Shown: positions 5,076 to 35,585, numbered from the stretch's first letter. The stretch is 64,000 nucleotides of DNA from Bryobacteraceae bacterium (GCA_036489835.1 DASXEY010000110.1:7146-71145); one strand, 5' to 3'. Notes: generated by a model from the sequence alone, not told the origin. Translations and numbers: made by a program.

Positions 5076-5078
5076 CGG

Positions 5079-5965: not shown

Positions 5966-6042
<77 letters not shown>

Positions 6043-6144
6043 GTAATTTCGATGGTAGCATCGAAGAATAACGCTACAACATACCGCGAGTCCGGCTGTA
6101 CAAGTCCAGAACATAATGGTACTGTTATGTTTCAGGGAGGTGCG

Positions 6145-6738
6145 ATGAAGCCAACCGCGCGAAACTGCGCCTCGGCCGTGTGTCTTCTTCTGGTGAACCT
6201 GTTCCCCGCGTCGACTTGGGCACAGGAACCCCCGCCCAAACTGGGGATCGTGATTGTGGAAGGCGAAGGCGCCGTCAACAATCTCAAGGATCAGACCACC
6301 CACGAGACTGTCATTCAAGTAGTGGACGATACTCAAAAGCCGGTCGCCGGAGCCGCGGTCGTTTTCTTTCTGCCCAACGACGGCCCCGGAGGCACCTTCT
6401 TCGACGGCACCAAGTCGCTGACGGTGACCACCGACGCGCAGGGCCGCGCCACCATCCGGGGCATCCGCTTCAACCGCCTTTCCGGCCAGATGAAGATTCG
6501 TGTTACCGCATCTTCCGCGGGCCAGACCGCGACCGCCACCATCACCCAGACCAATGTGGGCGGACCCGGAGGCTCGCCGGGCATGAGCACCACAGTTAAG
6601 GTATTGCTGATCGCCGCGCTTGCCGCGGGCGCGGCCACCGGAGCAATTCTCGCCACGCGCGGCGGGTCCAGTTCCAGCAGCACCGCCGCTCCGCCCATTA
6701 CGATCACCGCCGGAACGCCGACAGTGGGGGCTCCATGA
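6145..6738 (+). CDS. secreted Ig-like (Big-type) domain protein with C-terminal TM segment
   Basis: ATG at 6145 is preceded by GGGAGG and gives the signal peptide MKPTARNCASAVCLLLVNLFPASTWAQ. A beta-rich domain is followed by the hydrophobic stretch VKVLLIAALAAGAATGAILA. Confidence 0.65.
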   Translation: MKPTARNCASAVCLLLVNLFPASTWAQEPPPKLGIVIVEGEGAVNNLKDQTTHETVIQVVDDTQKPVAGAAVVFFLPNDGPGGTFFDGTKSLTVTTDAQGRATIRGIRFNRLSGQMKIRVTASSAGQTATATITQTNVGGPGGSPGMSTTVKVLLIAALAAGAATGAILATRGGSSSSSTAAPPITITAGTPTVGAP

Positions 6739-7775: not shown

Positions 7776-10627
7776 CCGCCCGCCGCGTTCTGCTCCTGCT
7801 CGTGTTTCTGGCGGTCGCATCCGCCGCATTTGGGCAGATAACCATCACCAGCACGTCGCCGCTGCCTCAGGGCTTCTCCACACTCCCGTACACCTACACG
7901 TTTACCGCGTTCTCGTTTCTTCCCGACTTGCCCGTTAGCTTTTCCTTAACACCGGGTTCCACTTTGCCCACCGGTTTCACTCTGGCCAGCAACGGTACCC
8001 TCTCCGGAACCACCAATCAGTTCGGAAACTTTTCTTTCCAGGTAACCGCAACCAATGGTTCATCCAGCGCTACCGCAACCTTCGCGCTGACGCTTTTAAT
8101 TCCTTTTATTACGATTAATTCCCCGCCCTTTCTGCCCAACGGCTTCGTCGGCCAGACCTACTCGCTGCTGTTTTCCGGGTCCTCCAACCCCGCGGGGCTC
8201 ACTTGGACGCTGGGCAGCGGCAGCCTGCCTCCCGGCTTGTTTTTGAATCCATCCGGCTTGCTGACGGGCAACCCGACCACAGCCGGAGTCTACTCATTCA
8301 TCATGAATGTGCAGATTTCAGGCACCACGCTTTCGACCAATCAGTCCTTTACGCTGACAATCTATAGCGGACAAACCAGCATCCAGACCACTTCCCTGCC
8401 CCTGGCCTTCAGCGGGAAGCCTTATTCGACGCTTCTCAGCGCAACACCCTCCGCAGTAACCTGGGGGCTGACCGGGATGCTGCCGCCGGGCATCACCTTC
8501 AATCCGGCCACGGGCCTTTTTTCCGGAATGACGACGACTACGGGAATATATTCACTCCTATTACAGGCGAATTACCCGAATTACGTCAGCAGCACCACCA
8601 CGCTGATTCTGTACGTCACCAGCGGTCCGCTTACCGTTCCGCAGACTAACCTTGCTCCGGCCGTTGAAGGCTCGCCTTATCAAGCGCCGGTTCTGGCGAC
8701 GGGCGGACTTCCTCCCTATCAATGGGCCTTCGTTTTCCCGACCACGGGTCTGGGCTTGAGCATTGGCGGGCAAACCGGAATCATCAGCGGCACGCCGACT
8801 ACTCCAGGGATATTGACGTTGCAAGTGCTCCTCAGTGACGCCACCGGGCAGAGCACCACCGTCGCCATCAGTATTTTTGTTGCCACCCCGCTCTCCGTGT
8901 CCACGACCTCGCTGCCCAACGCCTCGGCTGGATCCCCCTATTCGCAATCGCTCCTGGCCGGCGGGGGCGTGTCGCCCTTTACGTGGACCGTCACCTCAGG
9001 CTCGCTGCCTCCGGGACTCACGTTGTCCACGACCGGCGTCATCAGCGGAACACCTTCCGGCACAGGCACCTACCATTTCACCGTTCAAGTGACCGACGCC
9101 GGAGGCCGCACCGCTACCGGCTCGCTGAGCATCTCCCTGGGAGTCGCGGCTCTCAGCATCACCACTTCCTCGCTTCCCAACGGCCAGCTTACCGTCCCGT
9201 ATTCGCAAACGCTCGCGGTCTCCGGAGGCGTCGCCCCTTACAGCTGGGCGTTGGTCTCGGGCGCACTTCCGCCCGGCTTGTCCCTCCTGCCCAGTGGAAA
9301 ACTCTCGGGGACTCCGCTGGGTCCTCTCGGCATAACCACCTTCGCCGTGCAGGTTACGGACTCATCTCCGCCGCCCGCCTTAACTGCGCAAAAAGCCTTC
9401 ACGATAAACGTGGCTTTGACGTTGACCATCACCACCATCGGCCCCCTGCCCGGCGGAGTGGTGAATGTCCCGTATTCCCAGACATTGGCAGGCTCCGGCG
9501 GCACGCCGCCCTATATCTGGAACGTGACTTCCGGAGCGCTGCCTCCAGGGTTGAGTCTGAACACCTCCACTGGCGCAGTTTCCGGAACCCCCACGGCCAC
9601 CGGCCCCAACCTGTTCACGGTGACCCTTCAAGATGCGACGGGCTTGACTGCGCAGCAGCAACTCAGCATTGCCATCGCCGCCTCCGCCAATCCTCCCTCG
9701 ATCACCACCGGCAATCTTTCGGCCACCGTGGGCACCGCGTTTTCACAAACGCTGGCCGCGACAGGCGGAACGCCTCCTTATACATGGTCGATCTCCTCCG
9801 GGACTCTGCCGGCAGGGCTTCTCTTCAGCGGAGGCGTCATTAGCGGAACACCCACCGCCGCCGGCACATCGAACATCACTTTGAAAGTAACGGACTCGCA
9901 GCAGCTTTCCGCGACGGCGTCTATTTCCATCACTGTCGGCCTGCCGTCCACGCCGGCGCTGACCATCGGCACAATCCCCGCCACGCCCGCGACGCAACCG
10001 GCGGTGAGCCTGTCTCTCGCCAGTTCGTTTCCCGTGGCGCTGACCGGCACGATCTCCGTCAGCTTCCAATCCGCCGTCGGGGGCAGCCCGACCGAAGTCA
10101 CATTCTTTACGTCCGCCGGAAGCTTCACGTCACTCACCTTCAACATTCCCGCCGGATCCACCACGGCTGTGTTTCCGAATCCCCCGGTGCTCGACACCGG
10201 CACTGTGGCCGGGACCATCACTCTGTCCGCGACGCTCAGCTCCGGCGGAGTGGTCGTCACGCCAACTCCCGCCACCGAAAACATCGTGATTCCTTCCTCG
10301 GCGCCGGTGATTCAAAAGGTCACCTTCTCGAACACGGGAGGCACCCTTGCCGTGATCGTGACCGGTTATTCCACCACTCGCGAAATGGTCAGCGGCCAAT
10401 TCACGTTCGCTCCCGCGAGTGGCAGTACGCTTTCTCAGAGCACGATCACGGAGCAGCTTTCCTCGGCTTTCTCCACCTGGTATTCAAGCTCGGCGTCGAA
10501 CCAATGGGGAGGCCAGTTCATGCTGACCGCGCCGTTTAGCGTCGCCGGAGACGCCGCCGACGTGTCGTCGGTTTCCGTGACGCTGACCAACACCAAGGGC
10601 GCCTCGGCCGCGGTGACGCCGCAATAA
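7772..10627 (+). CDS. large secreted protein with ~9-10 tandem putative-Ig (He_PIG, PF05345-like) domains
   Basis: 951-aa ORF with a signal peptide and ATGA overlap upstream. The module SLPNG..G.PYSQTL.A.GG..PY.W...SG.LPPGL.L...G.ISGTP...G...F.V.VTD recurs many times. Confidence 0.85.
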   Translation: MTARRVLLLLVFLAVASAAFGQITITSTSPLPQGFSTLPYTYTFTAFSFLPDLPVSFSLTPGSTLPTGFTLASNGTLSGTTNQFGNFSFQVTATNGSSSATATFALTLLIPFITINSPPFLPNGFVGQTYSLLFSGSSNPAGLTWTLGSGSLPPGLFLNPSGLLTGNPTTAGVYSFIMNVQISGTTLSTNQSFTLTIYSGQTSIQTTSLPLAFSGKPYSTLLSATPSAVTWGLTGMLPPGITFNPATGLFSGMTTTTGIYSLLLQANYPNYVSSTTTLILYVTSGPLTVPQTNLAPAVEGSPYQAPVLATGGLPPYQWAFVFPTTGLGLSIGGQTGIISGTPTTPGILTLQVLLSDATGQSTTVAISIFVATPLSVSTTSLPNASAGSPYSQSLLAGGGVSPFTWTVTSGSLPPGLTLSTTGVISGTPSGTGTYHFTVQVTDAGGRTATGSLSISLGVAALSITTSSLPNGQLTVPYSQTLAVSGGVAPYSWALVSGALPPGLSLLPSGKLSGTPLGPLGITTFAVQVTDSSPPPALTAQKAFTINVALTLTITTIGPLPGGVVNVPYSQTLAGSGGTPPYIWNVTSGALPPGLSLNTSTGAVSGTPTATGPNLFTVTLQDATGLTAQQQLSIAIAASANPPSITTGNLSATVGTAFSQTLAATGGTPPYTWSISSGTLPAGLLFSGGVISGTPTAAGTSNITLKVTDSQQLSATASISITVGLPSTPALTIGTIPATPATQPAVSLSLASSFPVALTGTISVSFQSAVGGSPTEVTFFTSAGSFTSLTFNIPAGSTTAVFPNPPVLDTGTVAGTITLSATLSSGGVVVTPTPATENIVIPSSAPVIQKVTFSNTGGTLAVIVTGYSTTREMVSGQFTFAPASGSTLSQSTITEQLSSAFSTWYSSSASNQWGGQFMLTAPFSVAGDAADVSSVSVTLTNTKGASAAVTPQ

Positions 10628-23978: not shown

Positions 23979-24122
23979 ATGCGCGGTGCCATTCGGGGGG
24001 TAGTTCTCTTCCTTCTCTCTCCTCGATTCGTTAGAGGGGTGACTTCAATCACAGTTCTTCAAATACGAAGGCGGAGCCTTGTTCCCCGGCAGGCGACGGC
24101 ATTGATTTCTTTTGGGTTTTGA
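23979..24122 (+). other. 47-codon upstream ORF / relic of a duplicated receptor signal-peptide start
   Basis: ATG at 23979 follows CAGGAGAAACGGAAC, as at the 20124 start. MRGAIRGVVLFLLS parallels MRKGIQGLVALFLIS of the first receptor, then diverges. It is out of frame with the downstream receptor. Confidence 0.3.
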
Positions 24123-24145
24123 CAACGCGAGAGAGAGGTTCAAAC

Positions 24146-27100
24146 GTGACTCATACCAAACTTGTTACAAGGCTTATTCTCCTCCCCATGGCCTTTTTGA
24201 CAATCCTTTCCGTGGCACTGCTGGGTCAGGCGACGGATAGCAACATTGTGGGAACCATAACAGACGCAACCGGGGCAGCGGTTGCCAACGCGAAGATCAC
24301 GGCGACAAACAAAGACACCGGGGTCAAGTACGACACTGTCTCGAACTCCGCCGGCGAGTATCGTTTGAATAACGTTCCCGTTGGCACCTACGATATTTCG
24401 GCGACGGCCGCAAGCTTTGCTCCTGCCAGTACGGCCGGGGTTCAATTGGAGCTCAATCGCACAGCCTCGGTCAATCTGAAGATGGCCGTGGGTGCGGTGA
24501 CCACAACCGTGGAGGTGACTGAGGCTCCGGCCACGCTCGATACCGACACCTCCCAGATACAAACCACCTGGAATTCCGAAGCTGTCAGGAATCTCGCCGG
24601 CGCGGGCAGTTCCAGGCTAACCGATGGCGCGGGTGTCTATAATCTCAGCTTGGGAAACGCCGGGGTCTCGCTGAGCGGAATCGGCTATGGGACCGGACCC
24701 AGCGTGGCCGGCCAGCGCTCCGAGAACAATACGTTCAGTATCGACGGGGTTAACAACGACGACCATGACGTAACCGGCCCGCTGACCTACGTGTCTAACG
24801 AGGCAGTTGCCCAGATGAGTATCCTGCAGAACCAATTCAGCCCTGAGTTCGGCGGAGCGTCGGGCGGCGTCTTCAACCTGATCGTCAAGAGCGGGACCAA
24901 TCAACTTCACGGCTCCCTTTATGAGTACATGCAGAACCGGAATCTCAATGCCGTGGACAACACACTGGTTCTGAATGGAAACAGGACCAACCCGCGTTTC
25001 GACGACAACCGCTTCGGGGCCACGGTCGGCGGACCCATCGTCAAGGACAAGCTGTTCTACTTCGGCAATTATGAATACAATCCGGTGGGCCAGGCTTCCA
25101 CGCCGAGCGCGCCTGTCTACGCGCCGACCGCGGCTGGCATCAGCCTCCTGAACGGGATGAGCGGGCTGAGCAAGGCCAACCTGGGCATATTCGAGAAATA
25201 CGTTCCGGTCGCGCCCACTGCGGACCCCACCAATCCCATCACCGTCAACGGAGTGAATATTCCGAACGGCCCGCTGACGTTTGCCTCGCCGAACTACAAC
25301 AATGCCTATCACGGAATTGTTTCGACGGACTGGAATATCAGCGGCAAGGACCAATTCCGGGCCCGTTACATTTACGACAAGCTCTCGGAAATCGACAACC
25401 TCGCGGCGCTGCCTATCTTTTATTCCCAGGAGCCGACTCTGAACCAGATGCTGTCGCTCTCTGAGTTCCACACTTTCTCCCCCACCCTGGAGAACGAGAT
25501 TCGGATTTCCTACAGCCGTCATTACAATCAGGTACCGACAGGAAACTTCGCCTTCCCGGGACTGAACGCATTTCCCAATATCAGTGTGGACGAGCTCCAA
25601 TTGCAGCTCGGGCCGGATCCGAATGCGCCCTCGGGCGGAATCCAGAACCTGTTTCAGATTCAGGAGAACATCACCAAAACGATTGGCCGGCACACTTTTA
25701 AGGCAGGCTACAACTTCTCCGACATCATCCTGAGCAGCTTCTTCGTGCAGCGCGTGCGCGGCGATTACGATTACGCGACTCTTCAGGAGTATCTGCTGGA
25801 CCAACAGCCCAGCGGCGGAGACATCAGCGGCGTGTCGGGCGAGCGTACGTTTGGGGCGACCACGGGCGTTCCCGAAGGCTTCCTGCAGAACTCCGCGTTC
25901 GTCAATGACGATTACAAGATTAAGAAGAACCTGACGTTGAACCTGGGCCTGCGCTACGAAGTCGTTACCGTCCCCGTGGCTTCCCGCGCACAGCAGTACA
26001 GCGCGATCGCTGACGTCCCGGGCGTGATCAGCTTCAATAAGCCGAACTATAGCAAGAACGATTGGTCTCCACGTGTCGGCTTCGCCTATTCGCCCGGGAC
26101 CAGCGGCAAGTGGGCGATCCGCGGAGGCGTCGGGCGCTCCTTCGATCTCCCGTACGCAAATCTGAGCGTGAACGCGAACCCGGCCTACTATCAGGTCACG
26201 CAAGATGTGAATCCCGCCAATCCCGTGAGCAATTTCCTTGCGAACGGTGGACTGACGTATACGCCGCCGGCTGCGCAAACGGCTGCCTCTGCGCGATCCT
26301 CGCTTTCCTCCTATACCTGGTATCAGAATCGTCCCTACGCGCTGAACGGATCTCTGGGCGTGCAGCGGCTGCTCGGCAAAGACTACACGCTGGAGGCGCG
26401 ATATATTTACACCAAAGGCGTTCATCTGTACGTCCAAGATCGCTTGAATGTGGTCCCGCAAGTGACGCCCACCAATTACATCCCCACGTTTTTCACCATG
26501 CCTTCGGCCGCTCAATTCGCATCCCTGACCAAGACCCTGGGCAATGCGTCGACACCGGGCACGGTAGAGGGCACCATACCCTACGGGGCGACGCCGCAAA
26601 TCCCGTATAACGATTTGGCTGTGTATGGATTCCAACAAAATCTGGTAGGATTCAATCCCATCGGAGACTCCCGGTACAACGGTTTGGCGCTGCAGGTAAC
26701 CAAGCGCTTCTCGAAGAACTTCCAATATCTGGCCGCGTACACCTGGAGCCACAACCTGGACGATTCCACCGCGACGCTCTTTTCCACGTACTTCACGCCA
26801 CGCCGCGGACAGGACTTCCAGAACCCCGGCGGGGACTGGTCCGATTCGGCGCTCGACCACCGCCAGCGGCTGACCTTCACCCCGATCTACGACATCAAGC
26901 CCTTCCAGGGGTCGAGCTGGTTCCTGAAGAACCTTGTGGGCAACTGGAATCTCTCGGCAACCTACACCTACCAAACCGGGGAGCGAGCCACGGTTCAGAG
27001 CGGTGTCGATTCGAATCTCAATGGAGACAATGCCGGTGACCGCAGCATCATTAACCCGGCCGGCGCAGCTACCGTCGGCACCGGCGTCACTGGGTACAAC

Positions 27101-27499
27101 TCGGCCGGCAAGGCCGTGGCTGCGGGCAGCCCGAGTATCGTCGCGTATGTCGCCAATAATTCCAATGCGCGATATGTGGTCGCGGGAGTGGGCGCTCTTG
27201 CCAACGCCAGCCGCAATACGCTGCTGATGCCGCCCACGGACAACATCGACGCTGCTATCACGAAGCGGTTCGCGATTTCCGAGCGGATGCGCCTTGAATT
27301 CGCCGGGCAGTTCCTGAACCTGTTCAATCACGCCCAGTACACGGGTTCGTGGATCAATGACGTTTCGCCGAATCCAAATCTGGGCGCGGCGCTCGGCCGT
27401 AATGAGCTGGTGCCCAGCAATCCTCTGTTTGGCCAATGGTCGCAGTTCTTCACCAGCAATTCGCGGCAGATCCAGGTAGTGGCGCGGTTCATCTTCTGA
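24146..27499 (+). CDS. TonB-dependent receptor with carboxypeptidase-regulatory-like domain (paralog of 20124-23564)
   Basis: GTG at 24146 is preceded by GAGAGAGAGG; the maximal ORF starts with TTG at 24119. Signal peptide, then GTITDATGAAVANAKITATN...GTYDISATAASF. C-terminal ARFIF. Confidence 0.9.
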   Translation: MTHTKLVTRLILLPMAFLTILSVALLGQATDSNIVGTITDATGAAVANAKITATNKDTGVKYDTVSNSAGEYRLNNVPVGTYDISATAASFAPASTAGVQLELNRTASVNLKMAVGAVTTTVEVTEAPATLDTDTSQIQTTWNSEAVRNLAGAGSSRLTDGAGVYNLSLGNAGVSLSGIGYGTGPSVAGQRSENNTFSIDGVNNDDHDVTGPLTYVSNEAVAQMSILQNQFSPEFGGASGGVFNLIVKSGTNQLHGSLYEYMQNRNLNAVDNTLVLNGNRTNPRFDDNRFGATVGGPIVKDKLFYFGNYEYNPVGQASTPSAPVYAPTAAGISLLNGMSGLSKANLGIFEKYVPVAPTADPTNPITVNGVNIPNGPLTFASPNYNNAYHGIVSTDWNISGKDQFRARYIYDKLSEIDNLAALPIFYSQEPTLNQMLSLSEFHTFSPTLENEIRISYSRHYNQVPTGNFAFPGLNAFPNISVDELQLQLGPDPNAPSGGIQNLFQIQENITKTIGRHTFKAGYNFSDIILSSFFVQRVRGDYDYATLQEYLLDQQPSGGDISGVSGERTFGATTGVPEGFLQNSAFVNDDYKIKKNLTLNLGLRYEVVTVPVASRAQQYSAIADVPGVISFNKPNYSKNDWSPRVGFAYSPGTSGKWAIRGGVGRSFDLPYANLSVNANPAYYQVTQDVNPANPVSNFLANGGLTYTPPAAQTAASARSSLSSYTWYQNRPYALNGSLGVQRLLGKDYTLEARYIYTKGVHLYVQDRLNVVPQVTPTNYIPTFFTMPSAAQFASLTKTLGNASTPGTVEGTIPYGATPQIPYNDLAVYGFQQNLVGFNPIGDSRYNGLALQVTKRFSKNFQYLAAYTWSHNLDDSTATLFSTYFTPRRGQDFQNPGGDWSDSALDHRQRLTFTPIYDIKPFQGSSWFLKNLVGNWNLSATYTYQTGERATVQSGVDSNLNGDNAGDRSIINPAGAATVGTGVTGYNSAGKAVAAGSPSIVAYVANNSNARYVVAGVGALANASRNTLLMPPTDNIDAAITKRFAISERMRLEFAGQFLNLFNHAQYTGSWINDVSPNPNLGAALGRNELVPSNPLFGQWSQFFTSNSRQIQVVARFIF

Positions 27500-27515
27500 T
27501 ATGGAGCGACCTTGT

Positions 27516-27546
27516 CAACCCCCGCGAATTTGAGGGGTTGGTTTTT
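27516..27546 (+). terminator. rho-independent terminator
   Basis: CAACCCC-loop-GGGGTTG followed by GTTTTT, 17 nt after the receptor stop. Confidence 0.7.
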
Positions 27547-27547
27547 C

Positions 27548-27592
27548 GGGCCAGTTCACCCGCTTGCGGGTTGAACTGGCCCGGTTCCTTTT
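27548..27592 (+). terminator. second long hairpin (back-up terminator)
   Basis: GGGCCAGTTCACCCGC-TT-GCGGGTTGAACTGGCCC followed by GGTTCCTTTT. Confidence 0.5.
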
Positions 27593-27707
27593 GAGGAAGG
27601 CAGAGCTGATTTTCGGATCGATTCCAGGCGATTGGGAATGGTCCTCAGTGCCCGGGCCTCACCAGCTCCTATGGTGGCTGGCCGCTCCATCTTGACTGGC
27701 CTGTGGG

Positions 27708-28526
27708 TCAGGCTTTTTTTCGGGCCGCGCGGCTCCTGGCCGCGGGAGGCTTTCCCGCCCTAACCAGCGCCGGTTTGGCGGGGACCTCGGCGCTGGCAGC
27801 CCTGGCTGCTTTTGCCAGCGTTTCCAGGCAATCGCTAACCTTCTCCCGGATCTCGGCCTCAGTCTTTCGAGCGCGGTCCTTCCGGGCACTCTCCTTTTCG
27901 ACGATCGCCCGGAGGAGACATCGAACTCTTTCAACGAAATCGCCAACCGGATAGGCTTTCATCCGTTCGAGATAGTTAGGCGAGCCCTCGACGAAGCCGA
28001 TAAACGGTACCACGAAGCCGCCGGGCGCCGTCGGCGGCTGCTGGCCGCCATTTGTAGGCGGTCCCTCCGCGCTATTTCCATTGCCGTCGCATGGCGTAAG
28101 CCAGAACGCTTCGAAATGAAGCCACGTAATTCGTATCACTCGCAACTCGAACCGGCCCGTCCCTATCACCGGCAGTGTTTTCAGCACCTCCAACTGCTCC
28201 GCGAAGGTCAGGATTTGCACGTCCACCGAGACGCCGGTGAGGATCGGCGGAGAGGTTGGTTTGATGCTGCCAACGTGACACCCGGCATAAAGATCACCGT
28301 CGGCCGCGAGGAACCTCCAACCCGTGGGTATCACGAAATCGGCCAGAGTATCCGCAGGCCCGGCTATTTGGGACACCGCGGCGCGGTTCAGACTCCACCA
28401 CTGCAGTCCGACAAACTTTTTCTGCAGCAGCGACCAGAGCGGTCTGCTGGGATCGATATAATTTCCTAGCCCGGCAGTAAAGGCGCGCATCACCACCGGC
28501 GGAATCGTGGGTATTGTCAAACTCAT
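27708..28526 (-). CDS. orphan hypothetical protein with Lys/Arg/Ala-rich C-terminal tail
   Basis: The ATG at 28526 is preceded by GGAGAAGGA and gives a 272-aa product starting MSLTIPTIPP. It starts 32 nt downstream of the peptidase gene. No motif recognised. The tail is ...AKPALVRAGKPPAARSRAARKKA. Confidence 0.7.
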   Translation of the reverse strand: MSLTIPTIPPVVMRAFTAGLGNYIDPSRPLWSLLQKKFVGLQWWSLNRAAVSQIAGPADTLADFVIPTGWRFLAADGDLYAGCHVGSIKPTSPPILTGVSVDVQILTFAEQLEVLKTLPVIGTGRFELRVIRITWLHFEAFWLTPCDGNGNSAEGPPTNGGQQPPTAPGGFVVPFIGFVEGSPNYLERMKAYPVGDFVERVRCLLRAIVEKESARKDRARKTEAEIREKVSDCLETLAKAARAASAEVPAKPALVRAGKPPAARSRAARKKA

Positions 28527-28558
28527 ATCCTTCTCCTTTGGCTCTCTGGTATTCGCGG

Positions 28559-29332
28559 CTACGCCCAATCGCTTTCCACGAAATCCGTCTCGGTCCATCG
28601 CCCCTCGCCATAGTAGGCGACGGTGAACTCGTCAAAGTCCACGAGGTTGGACGGATTATCCGGATCGGCAATGTACAACTGTTGGGCGCCGGTGTTCAGC
28701 ACCCGGTAGCCCCGTATGACCACGAAGTGCCCTCCTCCTCCCACGTCGCTGTTCCAGGTGATTCCGGCGCAGATGGGCCGGCCGCGGTCTATCTCGCGCT
28801 GTACTTGCTCGAAGGTCAAGGAGCCGGTCGCGCCCGTTGAAGGGTCCTCATCCAGAGTGTTTCTCCACTTGTGTATCAATTGCAGAGCCGTTTCCAGTTC
28901 CGCGCCCTGGTTAAACTCGCCGGGGTTCTCGCAACACTTGGCCTGAAACACGAGACTAGCGACCCTGCACTGCTTCAACCTCGTGGCCGGGTCCGGATCA
29001 GGATCGAAATATTGCTCGACGCTCACCGCGACGGCTGCCCAGCACCAATCGGTTTGTTCCTGGCGCTGAATTTTAAAGTTGAGCCGCCGATGGGCGATAA
29101 CAGTTGGGCCCGTGACCGTTACCGTCCTCTGCGCGGTCTTGCCCGGATCACCGGTCCCAGTCTGCCCGAAATCGCCAGTACCGGTCTGCCCGAAGTCGCC
29201 TGTTCCCGTCTGCCCGAAATCGCCTGTACCGGTCTGCCCGAAGTCGCCTGTTCCCGTCTGTCCGAAATCTCCGGTGCCGGTTTGTCCGAAATCGCCCCCG
29301 CCCGTTTGTCCGCCGTTACTGAACTGTGGCAT
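28559..29332 (-). CDS. papain-fold cysteine peptidase-like protein (C70/C39-like) with N-terminal (GDFGQTGT)x7 repeat array
   Basis: Candidate Cys/His/Asp triad in QEQTDWCWAAVAV ... GGGHFVVIRGY ... YIADPDNP. The ATG at 29332 is preceded by GAGGAG. An alternative GTG at 29347 overlaps the kinase stop (GTGA). No signal peptide. Confidence 0.75.
   Translation of the reverse strand: MPQFSNGGQTGGGDFGQTGTGDFGQTGTGDFGQTGTGDFGQTGTGDFGQTGTGDFGQTGTGDPGKTAQRTVTVTGPTVIAHRRLNFKIQRQEQTDWCWAAVAVSVEQYFDPDPDPATRLKQCRVASLVFQAKCCENPGEFNQGAELETALQLIHKWRNTLDEDPSTGATGSLTFEQVQREIDRGRPICAGITWNSDVGGGGHFVVIRGYRVLNTGAQQLYIADPDNPSNLVDFDEFTVAYYGEGRWTETDFVESDWA
29147..29314 (-). repeat. 24-bp tandem repeat x7 (with 48-bp higher-order unit) inside the peptidase gene
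   Basis: Plus-strand units run ATCGCCNGTACCGGTCTGCCCGAA / GTCGCCTGTTCCCGTCTGCCCGAA ... Units 2+3 and 4+5 differ at only 2 positions. They encode GDFGQTGT. Confidence 0.9.
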
Positions 29333-29343
29333 GCGTCGTCTCC

Positions 29344-32046
29344 TCACTTGACCTGGTGCTTTTCTAGGAATAGCTTTTGAAACGCAGGATCCTTGTGCAG
29401 ATTATCCAAATCCTGCCAGCGATTGACGTCGTCGACCTGTTCGGGAGTGGATTCTTTCAAGACCGCCAGGGTCTTGTCCCGGTAGACATGATCGTTGTAC
29501 CTGCGGTACAGCTCCTCATACGTGAGCACGGCTCTCCAGCGAGTGTCCGACTCATCCGTGGCTAAACCCAAGGCTTCGCCGATGTCATCTTCGGCGTCCT
29601 GCCGGTTTCCGCAGGCGGCTTTAAAGTAGCCCAGAAAAGCTTTCTCATAGCCGTAGCGCGGGTTCAACTGCCCCTCCTCGGCCATCTTCAAGCCTTGCTG
29701 ACAATTCTTAAGCGAATCGCCCTTGTGCCCCAAATTCCGGTTAGCGATTCCGAGGTACATCAGGGTTAAATATGGGGGCGCCCCTCCTTGCGGGGAGCCA
29801 AGCATGAGAGCGTTTTGAAAGTGTTCGGCTGCCTCCGCCCAGCTTCCTCTGTACATCAGCGCCTGGCCGAGGTTGTGTTCCGCTGTCCGGGTCTTGGCCA
29901 GGTCGAGGGAGCGGCGATCTTCAGACAAGGCTTCGTCGAATCGCCCCAGGAGCCCGTAGGCAGCAGCAAGATTCGAATGCAGGCTGGGCTCATAAGGGGC
30001 GAGATCGACGGCCTTCTTATGGTACTCGGCGCCTTTGCTGAAATCGGAGCGATTGACGAAATACGCGCCGAGGTTCTGGTAGACCCGGGGGTAACCGGGT
30101 TCAACTTCCGCAGCCTTCTGAAAAGCCGTTAGAGCAGGCGTGAGCTGCCCGTCATCCTCATATGCTTTGCCGAGCAAAATGTAGGCGTTGGCATTGCCAG
30201 GTTCCAGTTGGATGGCCCGCTCGAGTTCCGCTCTGGCAGGGGCGTAACGGCCTTTCGAATATTGAAGATATCCCAGGGCGCGATGAACGCCCGCCACGTC
30301 CGGGTTGCGCCTCTCCGCCTGCCGCACCGATTCGTTGGCGCGATCCAGCCAGGACACATCCCTGGTGACACGGCTTTCGAACCACTGCGCCTCGGCCAGC
30401 GACGCGTATGGGAGCGGCGAGCCGGGATCTTCGGCGACGGCACGCTGGAGCAGGGAAATTGCTTCGTCCAGAGTGGAACTCTGGCGTGTGTCCCACACTC
30501 CGGCCCAATAGTCCTTCGCCGCCGCAGTATTCACGGAGCGGACCGCTCGCGGCGGCAGATGCAGCGCCGCTCTCACCATGCCGGCCAAGGCCACGGGCGC
30601 GTAGCGCGATAATTCTTCCGGAGCATACTCGGCAGTCCACTCCCTGACATTAACCTTCGATCGCGCGTCGATCAGCACGGCGTATAGAATTGCCTTGCCG
30701 TTTTGCCCTCCTAACCCGGTTTTCAGGATGTAGGTGGCGTCCGCACCGGAATCCGCCTTCGCAGGAGGGATGAAGGAAAGTCGCGCGACATCGCCGCCCT
30801 TTAGCTGGGACAACTCGGCCGCGGCATCGCGCGACAGGGCAAGGGCATCCCCAGCCATGCCGGAAGAGGACGGTTCAACAGACTGCATGGCCAGCCGCCA
30901 CGAGTCCTTGGGCGCGATAGCGCCCTGATAGGTCACCACGCCGACGACGATCGCCACGAAAGCAGCGGCGGCCAGCAGCCACCACGGCAGCGGACGCACC
31001 GGCTGAAGCACCTTTGCAACCTCTCCCGCGTCTCGAAATCTACGGGCAGGGGCCGGATCGAGGCATCGAGCCAGAACGGGATCCAGCTTAATGCCACCCC
31101 ACTTCGCGTGCAGATGCGGAGGCCTAAGCATGGCCCGGTGTTCCAGCGGAACATCCAGTCCAAACGGGCGGCGGCCGGACTCTAGTTCATAAAGAATGAC
31201 ACCCAGCGCATACACATCGGACGCGCCGGAAACCTTTTGGCCGGTCCACAGCTCCGGCGCCATATAGTCGGGTGCTCCACCCGCTTCCGCCGATTGCAAG
31301 TTTCCCAGAGGGGCAGTCGCGGCCGGCCCGCGAGCCAGACCAAAGTCCGTAATTACGGCCCGGACGGATTCTTCCTTGCCGCCGGCAGCCGCGGCATCGG
31401 TTGCGAGAATGACGTTATTGGTTTTGAGGTCGCCATGAATGACGCCATGACGGTGCGCTTCCGCCAAGCCGGCGCTGATCTGGCGGCCGAATTTCCGCGC
31501 GGCGGGGGCGGGCAGCCGTCCGCGGCGGAGCCGGTCGGCGAGGGTCTCGCCTTCCAGGAATTCCATAGTAAAGAAATCGATCTCGCCGTGCGCGGTGGAC
31601 GCCGAGTGAATCTCATAGATTTTGCACACGTTGGGATGGCTGATCTCGCTGGCGTGGCGCACCTCGGGAGGGAGGCGCTTGTCGAACCCCGCCTTGGCGC
31701 ACTTGACAGCGATGCGGCGTTCCAGCTTTTCGTCCCAGGCTTCGTAGACAACACCCATCCCACCCTCGGCCACCAGGTGCACGATCCGGAAGCGGCCGGC
31801 CAGACATTCTCCGGCCTCGAAGCGGTACTCCACCGGGGCGGGCACATAGATCGGATCCAGAAGAAACCGGTCCATGGCTTCTTCCCAATGAACGTAGTTG
31901 CGGACTTGGGCGAGGAGTTCGGAATCGTCTCCACACGCATTCTGAATAAAGGCTTCCCGGCGGCCGGGAGGCTGCGCCAGGGCAAGCTCCACCCGGGCCA
32001 TCACCGCGTCATCGTCTTGCGCCCTGCCGCCGCGAGAGTTGACCAT
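29344..32046 (-). CDS. membrane Ser/Thr protein kinase with C-terminal TPR-repeat region
   Basis: 900-aa ORF. Hanks kinase motifs (GGMGVVYEA, AVK, HGDLKTNNV, DFGLA, APE), a TM segment WWLLAAAAFVAIVVGVVTY, and multiple TPR-like repeats. The N-terminal ..ACGDDSELLAQVRNYV segment is typical of kinases paired with ECF sigmas. Confidence 0.9.
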   Translation of the reverse strand: MVNSRGGRAQDDDAVMARVELALAQPPGRREAFIQNACGDDSELLAQVRNYVHWEEAMDRFLLDPIYVPAPVEYRFEAGECLAGRFRIVHLVAEGGMGVVYEAWDEKLERRIAVKCAKAGFDKRLPPEVRHASEISHPNVCKIYEIHSASTAHGEIDFFTMEFLEGETLADRLRRGRLPAPAARKFGRQISAGLAEAHRHGVIHGDLKTNNVILATDAAAAGGKEESVRAVITDFGLARGPAATAPLGNLQSAEAGGAPDYMAPELWTGQKVSGASDVYALGVILYELESGRRPFGLDVPLEHRAMLRPPHLHAKWGGIKLDPVLARCLDPAPARRFRDAGEVAKVLQPVRPLPWWLLAAAAFVAIVVGVVTYQGAIAPKDSWRLAMQSVEPSSSGMAGDALALSRDAAAELSQLKGGDVARLSFIPPAKADSGADATYILKTGLGGQNGKAILYAVLIDARSKVNVREWTAEYAPEELSRYAPVALAGMVRAALHLPPRAVRSVNTAAAKDYWAGVWDTRQSSTLDEAISLLQRAVAEDPGSPLPYASLAEAQWFESRVTRDVSWLDRANESVRQAERRNPDVAGVHRALGYLQYSKGRYAPARAELERAIQLEPGNANAYILLGKAYEDDGQLTPALTAFQKAAEVEPGYPRVYQNLGAYFVNRSDFSKGAEYHKKAVDLAPYEPSLHSNLAAAYGLLGRFDEALSEDRRSLDLAKTRTAEHNLGQALMYRGSWAEAAEHFQNALMLGSPQGGAPPYLTLMYLGIANRNLGHKGDSLKNCQQGLKMAEEGQLNPRYGYEKAFLGYFKAACGNRQDAEDDIGEALGLATDESDTRWRAVLTYEELYRRYNDHVYRDKTLAVLKESTPEQVDDVNRWQDLDNLHKDPAFQKLFLEKHQVK

Positions 32047-32138
32047 GCTCCTCGTGTTTCAAAAGGCCCGCGCGCCGCCCCTACCCGCTATAGCGAAAAA
32101 ACTTTAAAGATCCCGCCAACCCATCCCGAACGACGAAC

Positions 32139-32213
32139 ATCTAGCCTGCCGGACTTGCCACGGGGGGCTGCTCCTAAGGAACAGCCCTCAAAAAAGGAGC
32201 CTGGGGCGGCGGC
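32139..32213 (-). repeat. variant copy of the GC-hairpin repeat family
   Basis: The reverse complement GGCCGCCGCCCCAGGCTCCTTTTTTGAGGGCTGTTCCTTAGGAGCAGCCC...GGCAAGTCCGGCAGGCTAG parallels 23703-23765. It lies between the sigma and kinase genes. Confidence 0.55.
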
Positions 32214-32271
32214 CACGAGAGGAGTTGTTCCTTTCGGGATTGAGATCCGCAACCGGCTCTTTGCGAAGCCG

Positions 32272-32856
32272 CTAGGGAAATCCGGAAAATAGACCTTCGT
32301 CCATGACGATGCGTCGAAACAGCCACTGCCGGGCGTCAGCCCACATTCTCTGGGTGGTGCGCAGGGAGGTTCCCATCGCCTCCGCGGCTTCCTGATCGGT
32401 GAATCCCAGGAAGAACTTCAATTCGACCACTTTGCACCAGTCCGGCTGGGTTTTCTGGAGCTCTTCCAGCCAACGGGCAACGTCAATGACCCGATTCGGA
32501 TCGTGCGGGCCAGATCGGGCGAGAAACTCCTCGATTTCCTGAATGGGGACGAAATTCGCGTCTGGCCGCCGGCGATGATAATCGATCAGAAACCGGCGCA
32601 TGGATCGGGCGGCGATTGCGAAGAAATGCTGCCGGTTCTGCCAATCCAGGTTCTTTGCGATGGAGAGCCGGAAGTAGGTCTCGGCCACCAACTCGGTGGC
32701 TTGCACCGAGTGTCCGCGCCGCTCCCTGCCCATGATTGCATGCGCCAGTTCCCGCAGCTTGGGAAACACCATCTCGTAGAGCTTGTCCTCAGCCGTCTTG
32801 CTCCCGGCAAGCCACTGCTTGAGGTTGATGGTGATGTCGCCGATTGGCTCGGACAT
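32272..32856 (-). CDS. ECF-type RNA polymerase sigma factor (PF07638 / TIGR02999-like, kinase-associated)
   Basis: From the ATG at 32856: ...ATELVAETYFRL...W.NR.HFFAIAARSMRRFLIDYHRRR... plus a region-4 HTH (FTDQEAAEAMGTSLRTTQRMW). It matches the ECF family that neighbours Ser/Thr kinases. Confidence 0.85.
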   Translation of the reverse strand: MSEPIGDITINLKQWLAGSKTAEDKLYEMVFPKLRELAHAIMGRERRGHSVQATELVAETYFRLSIAKNLDWQNRQHFFAIAARSMRRFLIDYHRRRPDANFVPIQEIEEFLARSGPHDPNRVIDVARWLEELQKTQPDWCKVVELKFFLGFTDQEAAEAMGTSLRTTQRMWADARQWLFRRIVMDEGLFSGFP

Positions 32857-33046
32857 AACGGCCTGCCAAAATTTTGGATGATTATACCACATAAGTGCCT
32901 CAGAAATATGACGAGGCGCGCAGTTTTATTGCCGCTCCCTGACCGTCGCGGAGCAGGGAGTTGGCGGGCTTTCCGCGGGAATCGCGCTCTCCAAGGTGAA
33001 CCGGTTCCCAAAAGCCGGTCTGGAAAATTACCGAAAAGGAGTAGTT

Positions 33047-33454
33047 ATGCATAAGAAGTCGGCTATTCTAGCCGGGCTGTTTGCCGCCATGTGTTCGGTT
33101 CTGCCGGCCCAGAACGTGACCATGTCCGCAACCATCCCTTTCGATTTCCGGGTGGGAGACAAACTAATTCCCTCCGGGACCTACCAAATCGTGACCTCGG
33201 ACACCTCCGTTATCCTACGGGAAGAGAGCGGCCGCGTTCTGACGGCCTCCTTCATTACCATCCCCGAAACGCGAGGAGGACCTCCGAATACGGGAGAGCT
33301 TCGGTTCAACCGCTATGGCAATGAGTACTTCCTTGCCAGCGTCTGGAATCCGTATTCCGTGAGGGGGCTTTCGATTCCGAAGACCGCGACACAAAAGGAG
33401 CTGGCTAAGCGCGCCAGCGCAGTAGTCCAGCTGGCCACTGCGCAGGTGAAGTAG
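33047..33454 (+). CDS. small secreted hypothetical protein
   Basis: The ATG at 33047 follows AAAGGAG. Signal peptide MHKKSAILAGLFAAMCSVLPAQ. 135 aa. Divergent from the ECF sigma gene. Confidence 0.65.
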   Translation: MHKKSAILAGLFAAMCSVLPAQNVTMSATIPFDFRVGDKLIPSGTYQIVTSDTSVILREESGRVLTASFITIPETRGGPPNTGELRFNRYGNEYFLASVWNPYSVRGLSIPKTATQKELAKRASAVVQLATAQVK

Positions 33455-33463
33455 CTGGGGGGA

Positions 33464-33505
33464 ACCCGGCCCCGATCGAAGACCGAAAAACTCGCGGGGC
33501 CGGGT
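33464..33505 (+). terminator. possible terminator hairpin
   Basis: ACCCGGCCCCG-20 nt loop-CGGGGCCGGGT just after the stop at 33454. The T-tract is weak. Confidence 0.35.
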
Positions 33506-33532
33506 AATTCGTTATCCTACGAGGGTCTGACG

Positions 33533-34489
33533 ATGCCGGACCCTCGCAACAAGCCAACCGCCCTTCTGGCGGACCCGATTTCCCGCCTGCATGACACCGG
33601 CGCGGAGCATCCCGAACAACCGCAACGTTTCGATGCGGTGGTCCAAGCTCTGGACCGGGGCGGGTTGATGCCAAGGCTCCTGCGCGTCCATCCCCGGGCG
33701 GCCACCGAGGACGAAATCGCCGCCTGCCACGGACGCCGCTATATTGAAACGGCCCACCTCGACATACTGTCGGGCGCGCGCGAGCTGTCGACCGGCGACA
33801 CTGTGGTGTCGCCAGAATCGTGGGATGTCGCGCTCAATGCCGCCGGAGGGATTCTCAATGCCGTGGACGCGGTGATGGACGGCTCGGCTCAAAACGCCTT
33901 TTGCGTGGTGCGGCCGCCGGGACACCATGCCCGTCCGGATCAGGGGATGGGTTTTTGTATCTTTAATAATGTTGCGATCGCTGCGCGCTACGCCCAGCGC
34001 CGGCATGGGCTGGGAAAAGTCCTCATCGCGGATTGGGACGTGCACCACGGCAACGGCACCCAGGATATCTTCTATTCCGACGGATCGGTGTTTTTCTTCA
34101 GCACGCACCAATCGCCGTGGTACCCGTTCACCGGCGCAGCCGATCAAACCGGGGTGGGCCGCGGCAAAGAATGTACCCTGAACTGTCCTTTTCCCGCGGG
34201 CTCCGGGCACACCGAGGTGGTGGGCGCGTTTCGGGAGCAACTGCGCCGCGCCGCGGACCGATTCCGTCCCGACCTGGTGCTGATCTCGGCGGGATTCGAC
34301 AGCCGCATGGCCGATCCTCTAGGACGCTTTACGCTGAGCGACAAGGATTTCGGGGAGCTCACCGGAGTTGTACTGGAGATCGCGGGCGAATACGCGGGAG
34401 GGCGGCTGGTGTCGGTGCTGGAAGGGGGCTATAACCTGAACGGTCTAGGTTTGGCGGCGGCGGCCCACGTCAAGGCTCTGATGCTTTAA
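33533..34489 (+). CDS. histone deacetylase-family (class II-like) deacetylase / acetylpolyamine amidohydrolase
   Basis: HPE.P.R, VVRPPGHHA and DWDVHHGNGTQDIFY are HDAC-superfamily active-site motifs. Confidence 0.9.
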   Translation: MPDPRNKPTALLADPISRLHDTGAEHPEQPQRFDAVVQALDRGGLMPRLLRVHPRAATEDEIAACHGRRYIETAHLDILSGARELSTGDTVVSPESWDVALNAAGGILNAVDAVMDGSAQNAFCVVRPPGHHARPDQGMGFCIFNNVAIAARYAQRRHGLGKVLIADWDVHHGNGTQDIFYSDGSVFFFSTHQSPWYPFTGAADQTGVGRGKECTLNCPFPAGSGHTEVVGAFREQLRRAADRFRPDLVLISAGFDSRMADPLGRFTLSDKDFGELTGVVLEIAGEYAGGRLVSVLEGGYNLNGLGLAAAAHVKALML

Positions 34490-34499
34490 GCTAGATTCC

Positions 34500-34844
34500 A
34501 TGAGCGTCAAAGTGAGCACTCGGCAGGTGGGCGACGTAACGGTAGCGGATGTGACGGGCAAGCTCACTTTGGGCGACGCGTCCAGCACTTTTCGGGACGC
34601 ATTGCGCGATCTGATCAGCCAGGGCCGCAAGAAGATCCTGCTGAACCTGCACGACGTGTCTTATATAGATAGCTCGGGAATCGGCGAACTGGTCGCGGGT
34701 TATACGACTGTCACCAGCGGCGGAGGCAAGCTGAAGCTCCTGAATCTGACCCAGCGTGTGCAGAGTCCGCTGCAAAGCACCAAGCTTTATACGGTGTTTG
34801 AAGTTTTCGATGACGAGACTGCGGGAGTGAAGAGCTTTACTTAG
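34500..34844 (+). CDS. STAS-domain anti-sigma-factor antagonist
   Basis: 114 aa. VTVADVTGKLTLGDAS...LLNLHDVSYIDSSGIGELV, a SpoIIAA-like pattern with the conserved phospho-Ser context (DSSG). Confidence 0.85.
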   Translation: MSVKVSTRQVGDVTVADVTGKLTLGDASSTFRDALRDLISQGRKKILLNLHDVSYIDSSGIGELVAGYTTVTSGGGKLKLLNLTQRVQSPLQSTKLYTVFEVFDDETAGVKSFT

Positions 34845-34961
34845 ACTCGGAGACTTGATTCAACTTTCCATTTGCACCACCGCAAGAGTGTGGTAGCATA
34901 TTAGTGCCTCGAAGTACCTTCGAAGCAAAACCCCCGCCATGGAGTCGAAGACAACCATCGA

Positions 34962-35585
34962 ATGAGTTTTACTGTTTTTTTGGGCAATCTGCCTGTTTGG
35001 GTGACCGCGGACGATATCCGAGGATGGCTCACCGCCGAAAATCTGGTTGCGGACGCGATTAAAGTGATCCGCAACCCCGAAACGCAGGAGTCCAAGGGCT
35101 TCGCCTTCATTGATGCCCCCAACACGGAGGAGATGAACGCGATTATCCGCCGATTCGATCGCGCGCCCTTGGAAGACCGCCTGCTCCGCGCCAATCCGGC
35201 GCAACCGCCCAGACCGAAGGGTCAGGGCCAGCCTCCGGGCCGTCCGACAGGTCCTCCCGGATCCGGGTTCGGCTATGGCGGACCCAGCCATGCTCCCACG
35301 GGGCATTCCTCCGGGCATGGACCGTCCTCCGGCGCATCCTCCGGATCTGGGGGACACGCTTCGACATCGGGGCAAAGTCAGGGATCGGGACAACCCACAG
35401 TGTCGGTGCATGGTCCGGCGTCGGGACAAAGTTCGGGTACCGGCCCGTCCGCTGGATCGCCGGCGGCTTCGGGAAACGGGGGCGATCTTCGTCCTCCGCC
35501 GCGGCGCAGGAAAGGTTCCGCGAAGCGTCCCTCCTCCGGAGGACCGCAGAGCCCCTTTGCCGAGGAATTAGCCAAAGCTCTTTAG
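34962..35585 (+). CDS. RRM-domain RNA-binding protein with long Gly/Ser/Pro-rich tail
   Basis: RNP2 VFLGNL and RNP1 KGFAFIDA, followed by ~120 aa of low-complexity G/S/P sequence. Confidence 0.8.
   Translation: MSFTVFLGNLPVWVTADDIRGWLTAENLVADAIKVIRNPETQESKGFAFIDAPNTEEMNAIIRRFDRAPLEDRLLRANPAQPPRPKGQGQPPGRPTGPPGSGFGYGGPSHAPTGHSSGHGPSSGASSGSGGHASTSGQSQGSGQPTVSVHGPASGQSSGTGPSAGSPAASGNGGDLRPPPRRRKGSAKRPSSGGPQSPFAEELAKAL

Follow-up and report, generated by a model that had tools for sequence, protein, structure and literature searches.

We analyzed a 64,000-nucleotide (nt) stretch of DNA from a Bryobacteraceae bacterium, a soil acidobacterium (GCA_036489835.1 DASXEY010000110.1:7146-71145), hereafter the window, in which a minus-strand locus joins a sigma factor/kinase pair to a cysteine peptidase and a partner protein. 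Four consecutive open reading frames (ORFs) encode, in this order, an extracytoplasmic function (ECF) sigma factor, a Hanks-type Ser/Thr kinase, a papain-fold peptidase, here termed PEP, and the partner, here termed ORPH (Table 1). All four co-directional genes are present at the positions claimed in an earlier note made from the sequence alone. They are closely spaced, with 11 nt separating the kinase stop codon from an ATG at 29332 and 32 nt separating the PEP stop codon from the ORPH start. The note had pointed to two features at the PEP start, a GTG at 29347 that overlaps the kinase stop as GTGA and an ATG at 29332 backed by a ribosome-binding site. Both can be found; we take the ATG as the real start, because it is preceded by AGGAG and yields an N-terminus, MPQF, that resembles the MAQF starts of homologues.

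Table 1. Features of the sigma factor-kinase-PEP-ORPH locus and its surroundings, in window coordinates.
Feature	Position	Strand	Basis
ORPH, 272 aa	27708..28526	-	gene directly after PEP
ORPH Ala/Lys/Arg-rich tail	27711-27818	-	
ORPH conserved alpha/beta core (residues 1-200)	~27927-28526	-	
Papain-fold cysteine peptidase PEP, 257 aa	28559..29332	-	PF12385, PF13529, AlphaFold2 (AF2), Foldseek
PEP peptidase domain	~28562-29101	-	
PEP triad codon, Asp223	28664-28666	-	
PEP triad codon, His202	28727-28729	-	
PEP triad codon, Cys97	29042-29044	-	
24-nt repeat array, GDFGQTGT units	29134..29296	-	Tandem Repeats Finder (TRF): period 24 nt, 6.8 copies
Hanks-type Ser/Thr kinase, 900 aa	29344..32046	-	Pkinase, TPR; orthologues in 36 loci
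Decayed internal ECF-type site, GGATAATCTG-N12-GCGTTTC	29379..29407	-	kinase 3'-end alignment; relatives have GGCGGACTTG-N12-CGCTTTC
Kinase extracytoplasmic TPR region (predicted)	~29542-30327	-	
Kinase transmembrane segment, single (residues 352-379)	30910-30993	-	
Kinase domain	~31003-31812	-	
ECF sigma factor, 194 aa	32272..32856	-	PF07638 and TIGR02999
Sigma factor Thr54, candidate phospho-acceptor	32695-32697	-	
Extended -10 element TGTGGTATAAT, housekeeping type	32881..32891	-	24 nt before the sigma ATG
Bipartite ECF-type motif GGCGGGCTTT-N12-CGCTCTC, facing away from the sigma gene	32963..32991	+	motif family, position 1
IPFDF-family gene, divergent; 135-aa secreted protein with signal-like N-terminus	33047..33454	+	predicted sigma target
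Deacetylase-family gene (histone-deacetylase family)	33533-34489	+	PF00850 E=1e-95
STAS gene (anti-sigma antagonist type)	34500-34844	+	PF01740 E=3e-14

PEP scores above the gathering cutoffs of two cysteine peptidase families, PF12385 (Peptidase_C70; E=1.4e-10, 41.7 bits vs. 19) and PF13529 (Peptidase_C39_2; E=1.8e-10, 42 bits vs. 24). In an alignment of 62 homologues, Trp-Cys97-Trp, His202 and Asp223-Pro are invariant and Gln91 is nearly so, bearing out the Cys/His/Asp arrangement that had been read from the segments QTDWCWAAVAV, GGGHFVVIRGY and YIADPDNP. The AF2 model is confident over the peptidase domain (predicted local distance difference test, pLDDT, >90 at residues ~70-257), and its best Foldseek match in the PDB is staphopain A (1cv8; E=3.5e-6, target template-modeling score 0.75). 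Staphopain C, the staphopain B-staphostatin complex (1y4h is listed), the phytochelatin-synthase-like Alr0975 and the C39 domains of PCAT1, ComA and LahT are also among the matches. The profiles, the invariant triad, the confident fold model and the structural matches together support the papain-like assignment and the triad. When solved structures were searched with a PEP sequence profile, the matches were weak (E 0.02-0.04) and comprised LahT150 (E=0.022) and a CdiA toxin domain, in whose alignments the His and Asp regions of PEP line up.

The resemblance to C70/AvrRpt2-like and C39-like peptidases suggested in the note holds at the profile level for both families, while the hallmarks of AvrRpt2 and of leader peptidases are absent. 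PEP shares with AvrRpt2 and EvpQ the C70 profile and the Cys/His/Asp triad. Unlike AvrRpt2, however, it has no host-targeting context or secretion system nearby, and AvrRpt2 has no described obligate downstream partner. The PxFGxW autoprocessing site of AvrRpt2 is missing from the PEP and ORPH sequences, and no AvrRpt2 entry occurs among the 50 best Foldseek rows of PEP. With the C39/C39_2 leader peptidases ComA, LahT and PCAT1, PEP has in common the PF13529 match, the LahT150 His/Asp alignment and the fold, but in the 36 loci with a linked kinase (see below) it is neither fused nor linked to an ABC transporter, and no double-glycine leader substrate was identified. No transmembrane segment or signal-like N-terminus was detected in PEP, in line with the earlier description of a protein without a signal peptide. 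Known C70-type effectors are secreted without Sec signals, AvrRpt2 by a type III and EvpQ by a type VI secretion system (T6SS) (PMC7991086). A plasmid search showed only that NCBI labels relatives "papain-like cysteine protease family protein", with a "hypothetical protein" as the next gene product. As a separate observation, many PEP orthologues (P0010, P0016, P0018, P0021, P0030, P0037) contain a dense Cys cluster (e.g., CGCCCQCCCDPDSC), the counterpart in the window being KCCENPGEF; Cys122 and Cys134 are invariant and Cys133 nearly so.

ORPH had been described as a 272-aa protein, 32 nt further on, with no recognizable motif and a Lys/Arg/Ala-rich tail, all of which is borne out (the last 37 residues include 14 Ala, 5 Lys and 5 Arg). 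It matches nothing in Pfam, NCBIfam, PADLOC or PHROGs, and a Pfam scan of 76 aligned family members returned no match for any of them. The view that it is an orphan, however, has to be given up. A word-indexed search retrieved only 17 relatives, whereas an ORPH profile run against 1.84 billion representatives found at least 243 clusters at E<=0.001 (83 at E<=1e-10), mostly of 180-230 aa, and the genes of this broad family nearly always lie directly 3' of such a peptidase gene. Residues conserved throughout the family (Trp70, Leu131, Trp142, Leu143, Pro174, Phe197) are exclusively hydrophobic or structural; a single Pro is fully invariant and no polar residue is conserved, a pattern that, judged from the alignment, appears unlike that of an enzyme. 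In the AF2 model (mean pLDDT 80.7), a long helix (residues 194-246) comes after an alpha/beta core. Foldseek rows for this model are weak (SAS-6, XRCC4-head and Whirly/PUR-like proteins, template-modeling score <0.3) and argue against a gasdermin-like or staphostatin-like fold, as far as the PDB and BFVD are concerned. Profile searches against PDB sequences gave either nothing or an Xre antitoxin at a non-significant E=0.043. Members differ in their C-terminal tails, which are rich in Lys, Arg and Ala in the window, P0110 and P0114, carry a helix-hairpin-helix domain (PF12836) in P0122, with the same extension aligned in P0116 and P0123, and are absent from most members, which have ~190-220 aa.

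PEP relatives were surveyed in one genome per species (80 loci), together with seven loci from contig look-ups, and annotated with our own hidden Markov models. A broad ORPH profile detected a same-strand ORPH gene just after PEP in 84 of the 87 loci; with strict adjacency required, at least 76 of 84 distinct loci have ORPH as the very next gene after PEP. The cassette occurs in at least eight phyla (Acidobacteriota, Alpha-/Beta-/Gammaproteobacteria, Actinomycetota, Planctomycetota, Verrucomicrobiota, Cyanobacteria, Gemmatimonadota, Eremiobacterota). Outside the Acidobacteriota its neighbors are unrelated from one locus to the next, with no sigma factor or kinase gene nearby. As the pair is found in many phyla without these regulators, PEP and ORPH constitute an old, self-contained two-gene cassette, to which the kinase link is a lineage-specific addition.

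Within the Acidobacteriota, the order sigma-kinase-PEP-ORPH recurs in 31 distinct loci and kinase-PEP-ORPH in five more, three of these at a contig end. All 36 kinase-linked loci belong to Bryobacterales, Bryobacteraceae, Solibacteraceae or other Terriglobia metagenome-assembled genomes (MAGs) and have different flanking genes; only in such Bryobacterales-type Acidobacteriota was the cassette seen after a sigma/kinase pair. The nearest relatives of the window are Bryobacterales MAG contigs (L001, L004/L008). The earlier note had made its reading depend on the two downstream genes being linked to sigma/kinase pairs elsewhere; tabulation of the loci shows that this linkage recurs in 36 of them, and the reading is not refuted. 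One could still argue that the cassette came to lie beside the sigma/kinase pair by chance or through neutral synteny, since synteny with the window extends further in L001 and L004, which are among its closest relatives. This explanation is contradicted by the conservation of gene order in 36 loci with different flanking genes, and the gene gaps of just 11 and 32 nt and the promoter motif common to the units (see below) also speak against it. We regard it as almost certainly wrong; the gene arrangement is not due to chance.

The first two proteins conform to what had been claimed for them. The sigma factor exceeds the cutoffs of both PF07638 (E=4e-35, 121.7 vs. 21.1 bits) and TIGR02999 (E=1.6e-43, 148.7 vs. 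126.15 bits). Its region 2.2 reads HSVQATELV, with QATE in the place where most ECF sigma factors have DAED, and the Thr is kept in 31 of the 32 sigma factors of the module. ECF43 sigma factors lack the acidic patch, and phosphorylation of the Thr in their QTTA motif by a neighboring kinase leads to RNA polymerase binding (PMC8999054, PMC13147305). By the criteria for phosphorylation-activated ECF sigma factors taken from these studies (PMC13147305, PMC8999054), the present protein is ECF43-like, having an adjacent Ser/Thr kinase, no anti-sigma factor, and an uncharged DAED replacement with a conserved Thr. The pairs EcfP-PknT of Vibrio parahaemolyticus and EcfK-PknS of Xanthomonas citri likewise consist of an ECF sigma gene beside a single-pass Ser/Thr kinase gene, with no anti-sigma gene; the ECF43 consensus is QTTA as opposed to QATE here, yet in both cases DAED is replaced by an uncharged sequence with a conserved Thr (PMC13147305, PMC8999054). 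The likeness is one of motif and gene context. By analogy, we suggest that QATE/Thr54 probably acts as an ECF43-type phospho-switch, with Thr54 as the residue that would be phosphorylated.

The kinase, described in the note as a 900-aa membrane Ser/Thr kinase with a TPR region, matches Pkinase (E=2e-32) and several TPR families. Its catalytic motifs are intact (AVK114, HGD204, a non-RD variant, DFG234 and APE263), and its N-terminal 75 residues are conserved. Given the single hydrophobic segment, the kinase domain should be cytoplasmic and the TPR region extracytoplasmic. Among PADLOC defense-system profiles, the kinase domain matched generic kinase models only, and the sigma factor, PEP and ORPH matched none; a defense-system reading was therefore dropped.

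A search for shared regulatory elements revealed a bipartite motif, GGCGGACTTT-N11-12-CGCT(A/T)TC, with 55 matches in 1.35 Mb as compared with 3-11 in ten shuffles. They are spaced 40-70 nt from the start codons that follow, and these belong to three recurring gene sets. The first encodes a protein of ~136 aa that begins with a signal-like segment and has an IPFDF motif; the gene is usually divergent from the sigma gene, and its family, most often with the motif in front, adjoins the module in 25 loci. The second is a small Gly-rich ORF or, in its place, a long form of PEP. The third is a STAS-domain gene that follows ORPH and has its own motif copy in 11 loci. The motif thus likely marks a regulon comprising the secreted protein, the PEP/ORPH unit and the STAS gene, with the sigma factor as the protein that would recognize it. 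ECF43 pairs, by comparison, control polymyxin-resistance or T6SS genes; a further difference is that one predicted target promoter of the present pair is embedded in the 3' coding sequence of the kinase itself. There, at position 2, the motif falls inside the last ~25 kinase codons, over the peptide LADLxxDxRF, and synonymous codons are biased towards it: Ala is encoded by GCG in 20 of 21 cases, Arg by CGC in 18 of 21, and Leu by TTA or TTG in 18 of 24, compared with 25% gene-wide, the loci counted not being phylogenetically independent. This bias suggests DNA-level selection on the motif within the kinase 3' end.

In the window the position 2 site is decayed, and it is likewise lost in L001, L004 and L005. 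Because of this decay, PEP and ORPH of this lineage are most likely read through from the sigma-kinase transcript, and the narrow gaps, combined with the lack of an internal promoter motif, make cotranscription the likeliest arrangement. The sigma-kinase(-peptidase-partner) transcript is likely driven by the extended -10 element TGTGGTATAAT; TGnTAtAAT-like elements occupy the same position upstream of the sigma gene in most of 30 loci compared. A longer sigma ORF, with its start at 32892, overlaps this element and is probably not used. The operon running from the kinase into the cassette, as originally proposed, is therefore favored for the window lineage; in most relatives the peptidase unit has its own conserved ECF-type motif and looks like a regulated target and not merely the tail of a kinase operon. 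Nor is the module confined to four genes: the divergent gene for the secreted protein, which has this motif as well, belongs to it, as does in many cases a STAS gene. The IPFDF protein has no match in Pfam, NCBIfam or the PDB. In the window its gene is followed by the deacetylase-family and STAS genes, which may be cotranscribed with it, and the trio is syntenic in L001, L004 and L090. Seven loci have, near the module, a large permease of the FtsX/MacB-like kind joined to a SpoIIE-type (PP2C) phosphatase in one protein; this fusion adjoins the STAS gene in L001 (691-4446) and may be a partner-switching component.

The N-terminal region of PEP carries the Gly-rich repeats. The earlier note counted seven GDFGQTGT octapeptides; the array is real and seven is a fair count, although only six copies are exact (PEP residues 13-60), with degenerate units flanking them on both sides. 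With a pLDDT of 42-52 in the AF2 model, the region is predicted to be disordered. At the DNA level, TRF scores a 48-nt period above the 24-nt period (87% vs. 81% matches at 29134-29296), implying that the octapeptide codons alternate between two synonymous versions in a two-unit higher-order repeat. PEP orthologues have different repeats, for example GGSDPGTT, GGGTGGTG, GGDLGQTG, GSDVGQTG, GGDPGGTG, GGDPGQIG, GGDPGDFG and GGDGNTG. Loci with a short PEP (156-200 aa) have a gap of 220-530 nt behind the kinase gene, and in it a separate small ORF, laid out as a conserved, hairpin-like N-terminus (MLIEYKIKFdKDGvTITQ), hypervariable Gly/Pro-rich tandem repeats and a hydrophobic motif (vvIGPIvI). 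Elsewhere PEP itself carries all three parts as an N-terminal fusion; the window PEP retains only the repeats and a VTVTGPTVIA remnant, and five loci have small Lys-rich, Gly-rich peptides in place of the Gly-rich ORF. Neither the small ORFs nor the corresponding PEP N-terminal regions match Pfam or NCBIfam, and a "prion octapeptide" match to the ORFs was sub-threshold and compositional. The comparison of loci thus shows the window array to be one state of a rapidly changing accessory element.

The hairpin of the small ORFs may resemble the first hairpin of ubiquitin or of STAS proteins. Small ORFs (L011-L019, L023, L026) start with MLIEYKIKF..GVTITQ and STAS proteins (L020, L028, L041, L050) with MLIEIEQ..VCIL, and this common pattern may be a coincidence. 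Outside the Acidobacteriota, PEP carries other N-terminal modules (L053/L055 of Variovorax, P0090, L063, L061, L083), including BTRD1 repeats (PF17660), a repeated propeller- or lectin-like unit (GNFELVVP...FWRNND) and others of unassigned type.

These comparisons bear on two explanations that center on the repeats. According to the first, the Thr-rich repeats are multi-site phospho-acceptors through which the neighboring kinase switches the protease on or off. The PEP gene does adjoin that of the Ser/Thr kinase, and most repeat variants contain Thr or Ser (GDFGQTGT, GGSDPGTT, GGDRTGTGT). However, several orthologues have repeats without either residue (GGDPGQIG, GGDPGDFG, GGQQERPGD), on which ground a universal phospho-acceptor array was rejected; moreover, the repeat sequence changes completely between orthologues and the element is often a separate protein encoded by its own gene. 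We therefore consider a kinase-substrate array improbable.

The second explanation is a peptide-signal circuit, an autocrine loop of the Agr/Com kind in which the C39-like peptidase cuts an octapeptide precursor, the TPR region of the kinase senses the peptides, and the sigma factor provides the output. It would account for repeat units that are identical within a protein and different between orthologues, for a Gly-rich element that is often a separate gene right before PEP and behind a sigma-type motif, and for the relationship of PEP to double-glycine leader peptidases (PF13529, LahT150 at E=0.022, the ComA and PCAT1 fold). Against it, there is no exporter in or near the module and no consistent cleavage site, and the window repeat units contain no Gly-Gly site. 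The element is replaced in some loci by Lys-rich peptides or an ORPH domain, the PEP/ORPH cassettes of other phyla lack it, and ORPH would be left without a role. In our view such a circuit is very improbable.

Evolutionary rates and gene duplications bear on the role of ORPH. Relative to L001, identity is 85% for the sigma factor, 83% for the kinase domain, 73% for PEP and 61% for ORPH; across subclades, PEP and ORPH are 31-44% identical, as compared with 48-67% for the sigma factor and kinase domain. ORPH is the fastest-evolving of the four proteins, and both PEP and ORPH evolve faster than the sigma factor and the kinase. Close relatives of the window contain a duplicated cassette with the layout sigma, kinase, PEP1, an ORPH1-PEP2 fusion and ORPH2, cassette duplication being seen in L090-L093. 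ORPH copies occur in tandem in L071 and L072, and in the latter (4890-10257) two PEP paralogues share identical upstream DNA and an identical 64-aa N-terminus, have divergent peptidase domains, and are each accompanied by their own ORPH copies. A few ORPH copies carry lipoprotein-type signals, one of them being 96% identical to the adjoining signal-less copy.

From the computed folds, triad, conservation and motif positions, we infer a signaling module with an effector cassette as its output, in which phosphorylation of the sigma factor, its recognition of the motif, the neutralizing role of ORPH and the target of PEP are the conditional elements. The membrane kinase would sense an extracytoplasmic cue via its TPR region and then phosphorylate Thr54 of the sigma factor, which, lacking the acidic DAED patch, would by ECF43-type logic be inactive until phosphorylated. 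The active sigma factor would read GGCGGACTTT-N11-12-CGCT(A/T)TC promoters and thereby drive three units: the small secreted protein, the Gly-rich element with PEP and ORPH, and often the STAS protein. In the window, with the internal promoter decayed, the cassette would probably be cotranscribed with the sigma factor and kinase from the housekeeping-type extended -10 promoter. PEP would be an effector that could do harm, restrained in the cell that makes it by ORPH, which most likely binds and neutralizes it as an inhibitor, immunity protein or antitoxin would. We give this reading, a protease with a neutralizing partner as the output of a phospho-activated sigma factor, about an even chance.

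Several lines of evidence favor a neutralizing partner. ORPH is found directly downstream of PEP across phyla, it evolves fastest and conserves only hydrophobic or structural residues, and it occurs in tandem copies, in duplicated cassettes and in versions with lipoprotein signals. The L072 paralogues, with identical N-termini, different peptidase domains and partners of their own, reproduce the pattern of polymorphic toxins. Staphopains, the closest structural relatives of PEP, are cotranscribed with a downstream inhibitor. In the staphopain-staphostatin (scpAB, sspBC) and SpeB-Spi systems, as in the present cassette, a papain-fold protease gene is followed by that of a small partner in the same transcription unit; the staphopain partner protects the producer, a role that ORPH might share. 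Differences from these systems exist, as PEP has no signal peptide or classical prodomain, and ORPH (~200 aa, alpha/beta with a long helix) resembles neither the staphostatin barrel nor prodomain-like inhibitors. With polymorphic toxin/immunity systems the cassette shares a C-terminal enzymatic domain behind variable N-termini, a fast-evolving downstream partner and tandem partner copies; partner arrays are seen in L072 and L071, cassette duplication in L090-L093, and shared N-termini with different C-terminal domains in one locus, none of this occurring in the window itself. As differences, Pfam recognizes no trafficking domain in the N-terminal regions, the module loci contain no secretion system, and ORPH matches no Pfam family, catalogued immunity families included.

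Other findings weigh against the proposed module. Foldseek searches of the PDB and BFVD with the ORPH model gave no match at E <0.07, and thus no known inhibitor or immunity fold, and an N-terminal extension is missing from 157 of the 160 representatives of the ORPH family. Natural fusions exist in both orders, ORPH-PEP and PEP-ORPH, an arrangement that would suit a stable complex but is uncommon among toxin/immunity pairs. An exported toxin would lack a route, given that PEP has no signal peptide and that no secretion or delivery genes are conserved near the module; a transporter is likewise absent from the 36 loci. On the regulatory side, the motif in the kinase 3' end could partly reflect the conserved LADLxxDxRF peptide, and the absence of the PEP promoter motif from the window means that sigma control of PEP would there be indirect at best.

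The fusions can also be read in another way, with ORPH as the target or cofactor of PEP, so that, for example, cleavage releases or activates ORPH and proteolysis becomes the output downstream of the kinase. In keeping with a substrate or adaptor, the tails of ORPH look nucleic-acid-binding in some lineages (Lys/Arg-rich, or PF12836 in P0122), its long C-terminal helix could mediate assembly, and it has no similarity to known inhibitors. The tails are, however, lineage-specific additions absent from most family members, no cleavage-site-like motif is conserved across the family, in which one Pro is fully invariant, and tandem divergent and signal-bearing ORPH copies fit protection better. We consider a substrate or adaptor role unlikely. 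Between the two models offered in the earlier note, a kinase-controlled protease/substrate output and a protease toxin with an immunity or inhibitor protein, the evidence leans towards the latter. A bolder form of the neutralization reading would make PEP/ORPH an unrecognized, phylum-spanning toxin/neutralizer class with a papain-like protease toxin. In Bryobacterales, this class would have been joined by a secreted protein and by the hypervariable Gly-rich element, which may be of a translocation type, and placed under a phospho-activated ECF sigma factor via a promoter in the kinase coding sequence, giving a kinase-triggered bacteriocin-like or suicide-type effector. We advance this version as a tentative and rather doubtful possibility.

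Literature searches turned up no account of PEP and ORPH as a pair, of the ORPH family, or of a connection between this family and sigma/kinase pairs, in agreement with the earlier note, which knew of no described module of this kind. Three protein families in the module are unannotated: ORPH, the IPFDF protein and the Gly-rich hairpin protein. Acidobacteria and Planctomycetes have sigma/kinase pairs in great abundance, yet to our knowledge hardly anything is known about their targets; the module supplies a specific candidate for the promoter motif of such a pair, together with a regulon that is small and conserved. If the promoter within the kinase gene is real, a regulatory site and a conserved protein motif share the same DNA there. 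The finding holds up and is more general than could be seen in the earlier note. A large family of papain-like proteases with an obligate, unannotated partner across phyla points to an undescribed general protease-control or conflict cassette, and if ORPH is an inhibitor or immunity protein, it would represent a new fold for cysteine-protease inhibition.

Some further features were noted at PEP-ORPH loci. In a Crocosphaera MAG (L077, 1155-9007), PEP and ORPH lie among ~10 small paralogous genes (ITDAVTQANVKV...), which may resemble RebB/R-body "killing trait" proteins. In the window, long antisense ORFs at 24140-32292 (e.g., 24617-27436 on the minus strand, 31237-32292 and 28871-29380 on the plus strand) are unsupported and were set aside as a usual by-product of a G+C content of ~60%. 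An Rfam scan of 26500-35500 returned no RNA family. Between the convergent ORPH and TonB-dependent-receptor-like (24119-27499, plus strand) genes, a long GC-rich hairpin, GGGCCAGTTCAACCCGCAAGCGGGTGAACTGGCCC, is located at ~27555-27592, with a T-run on the plus strand only.

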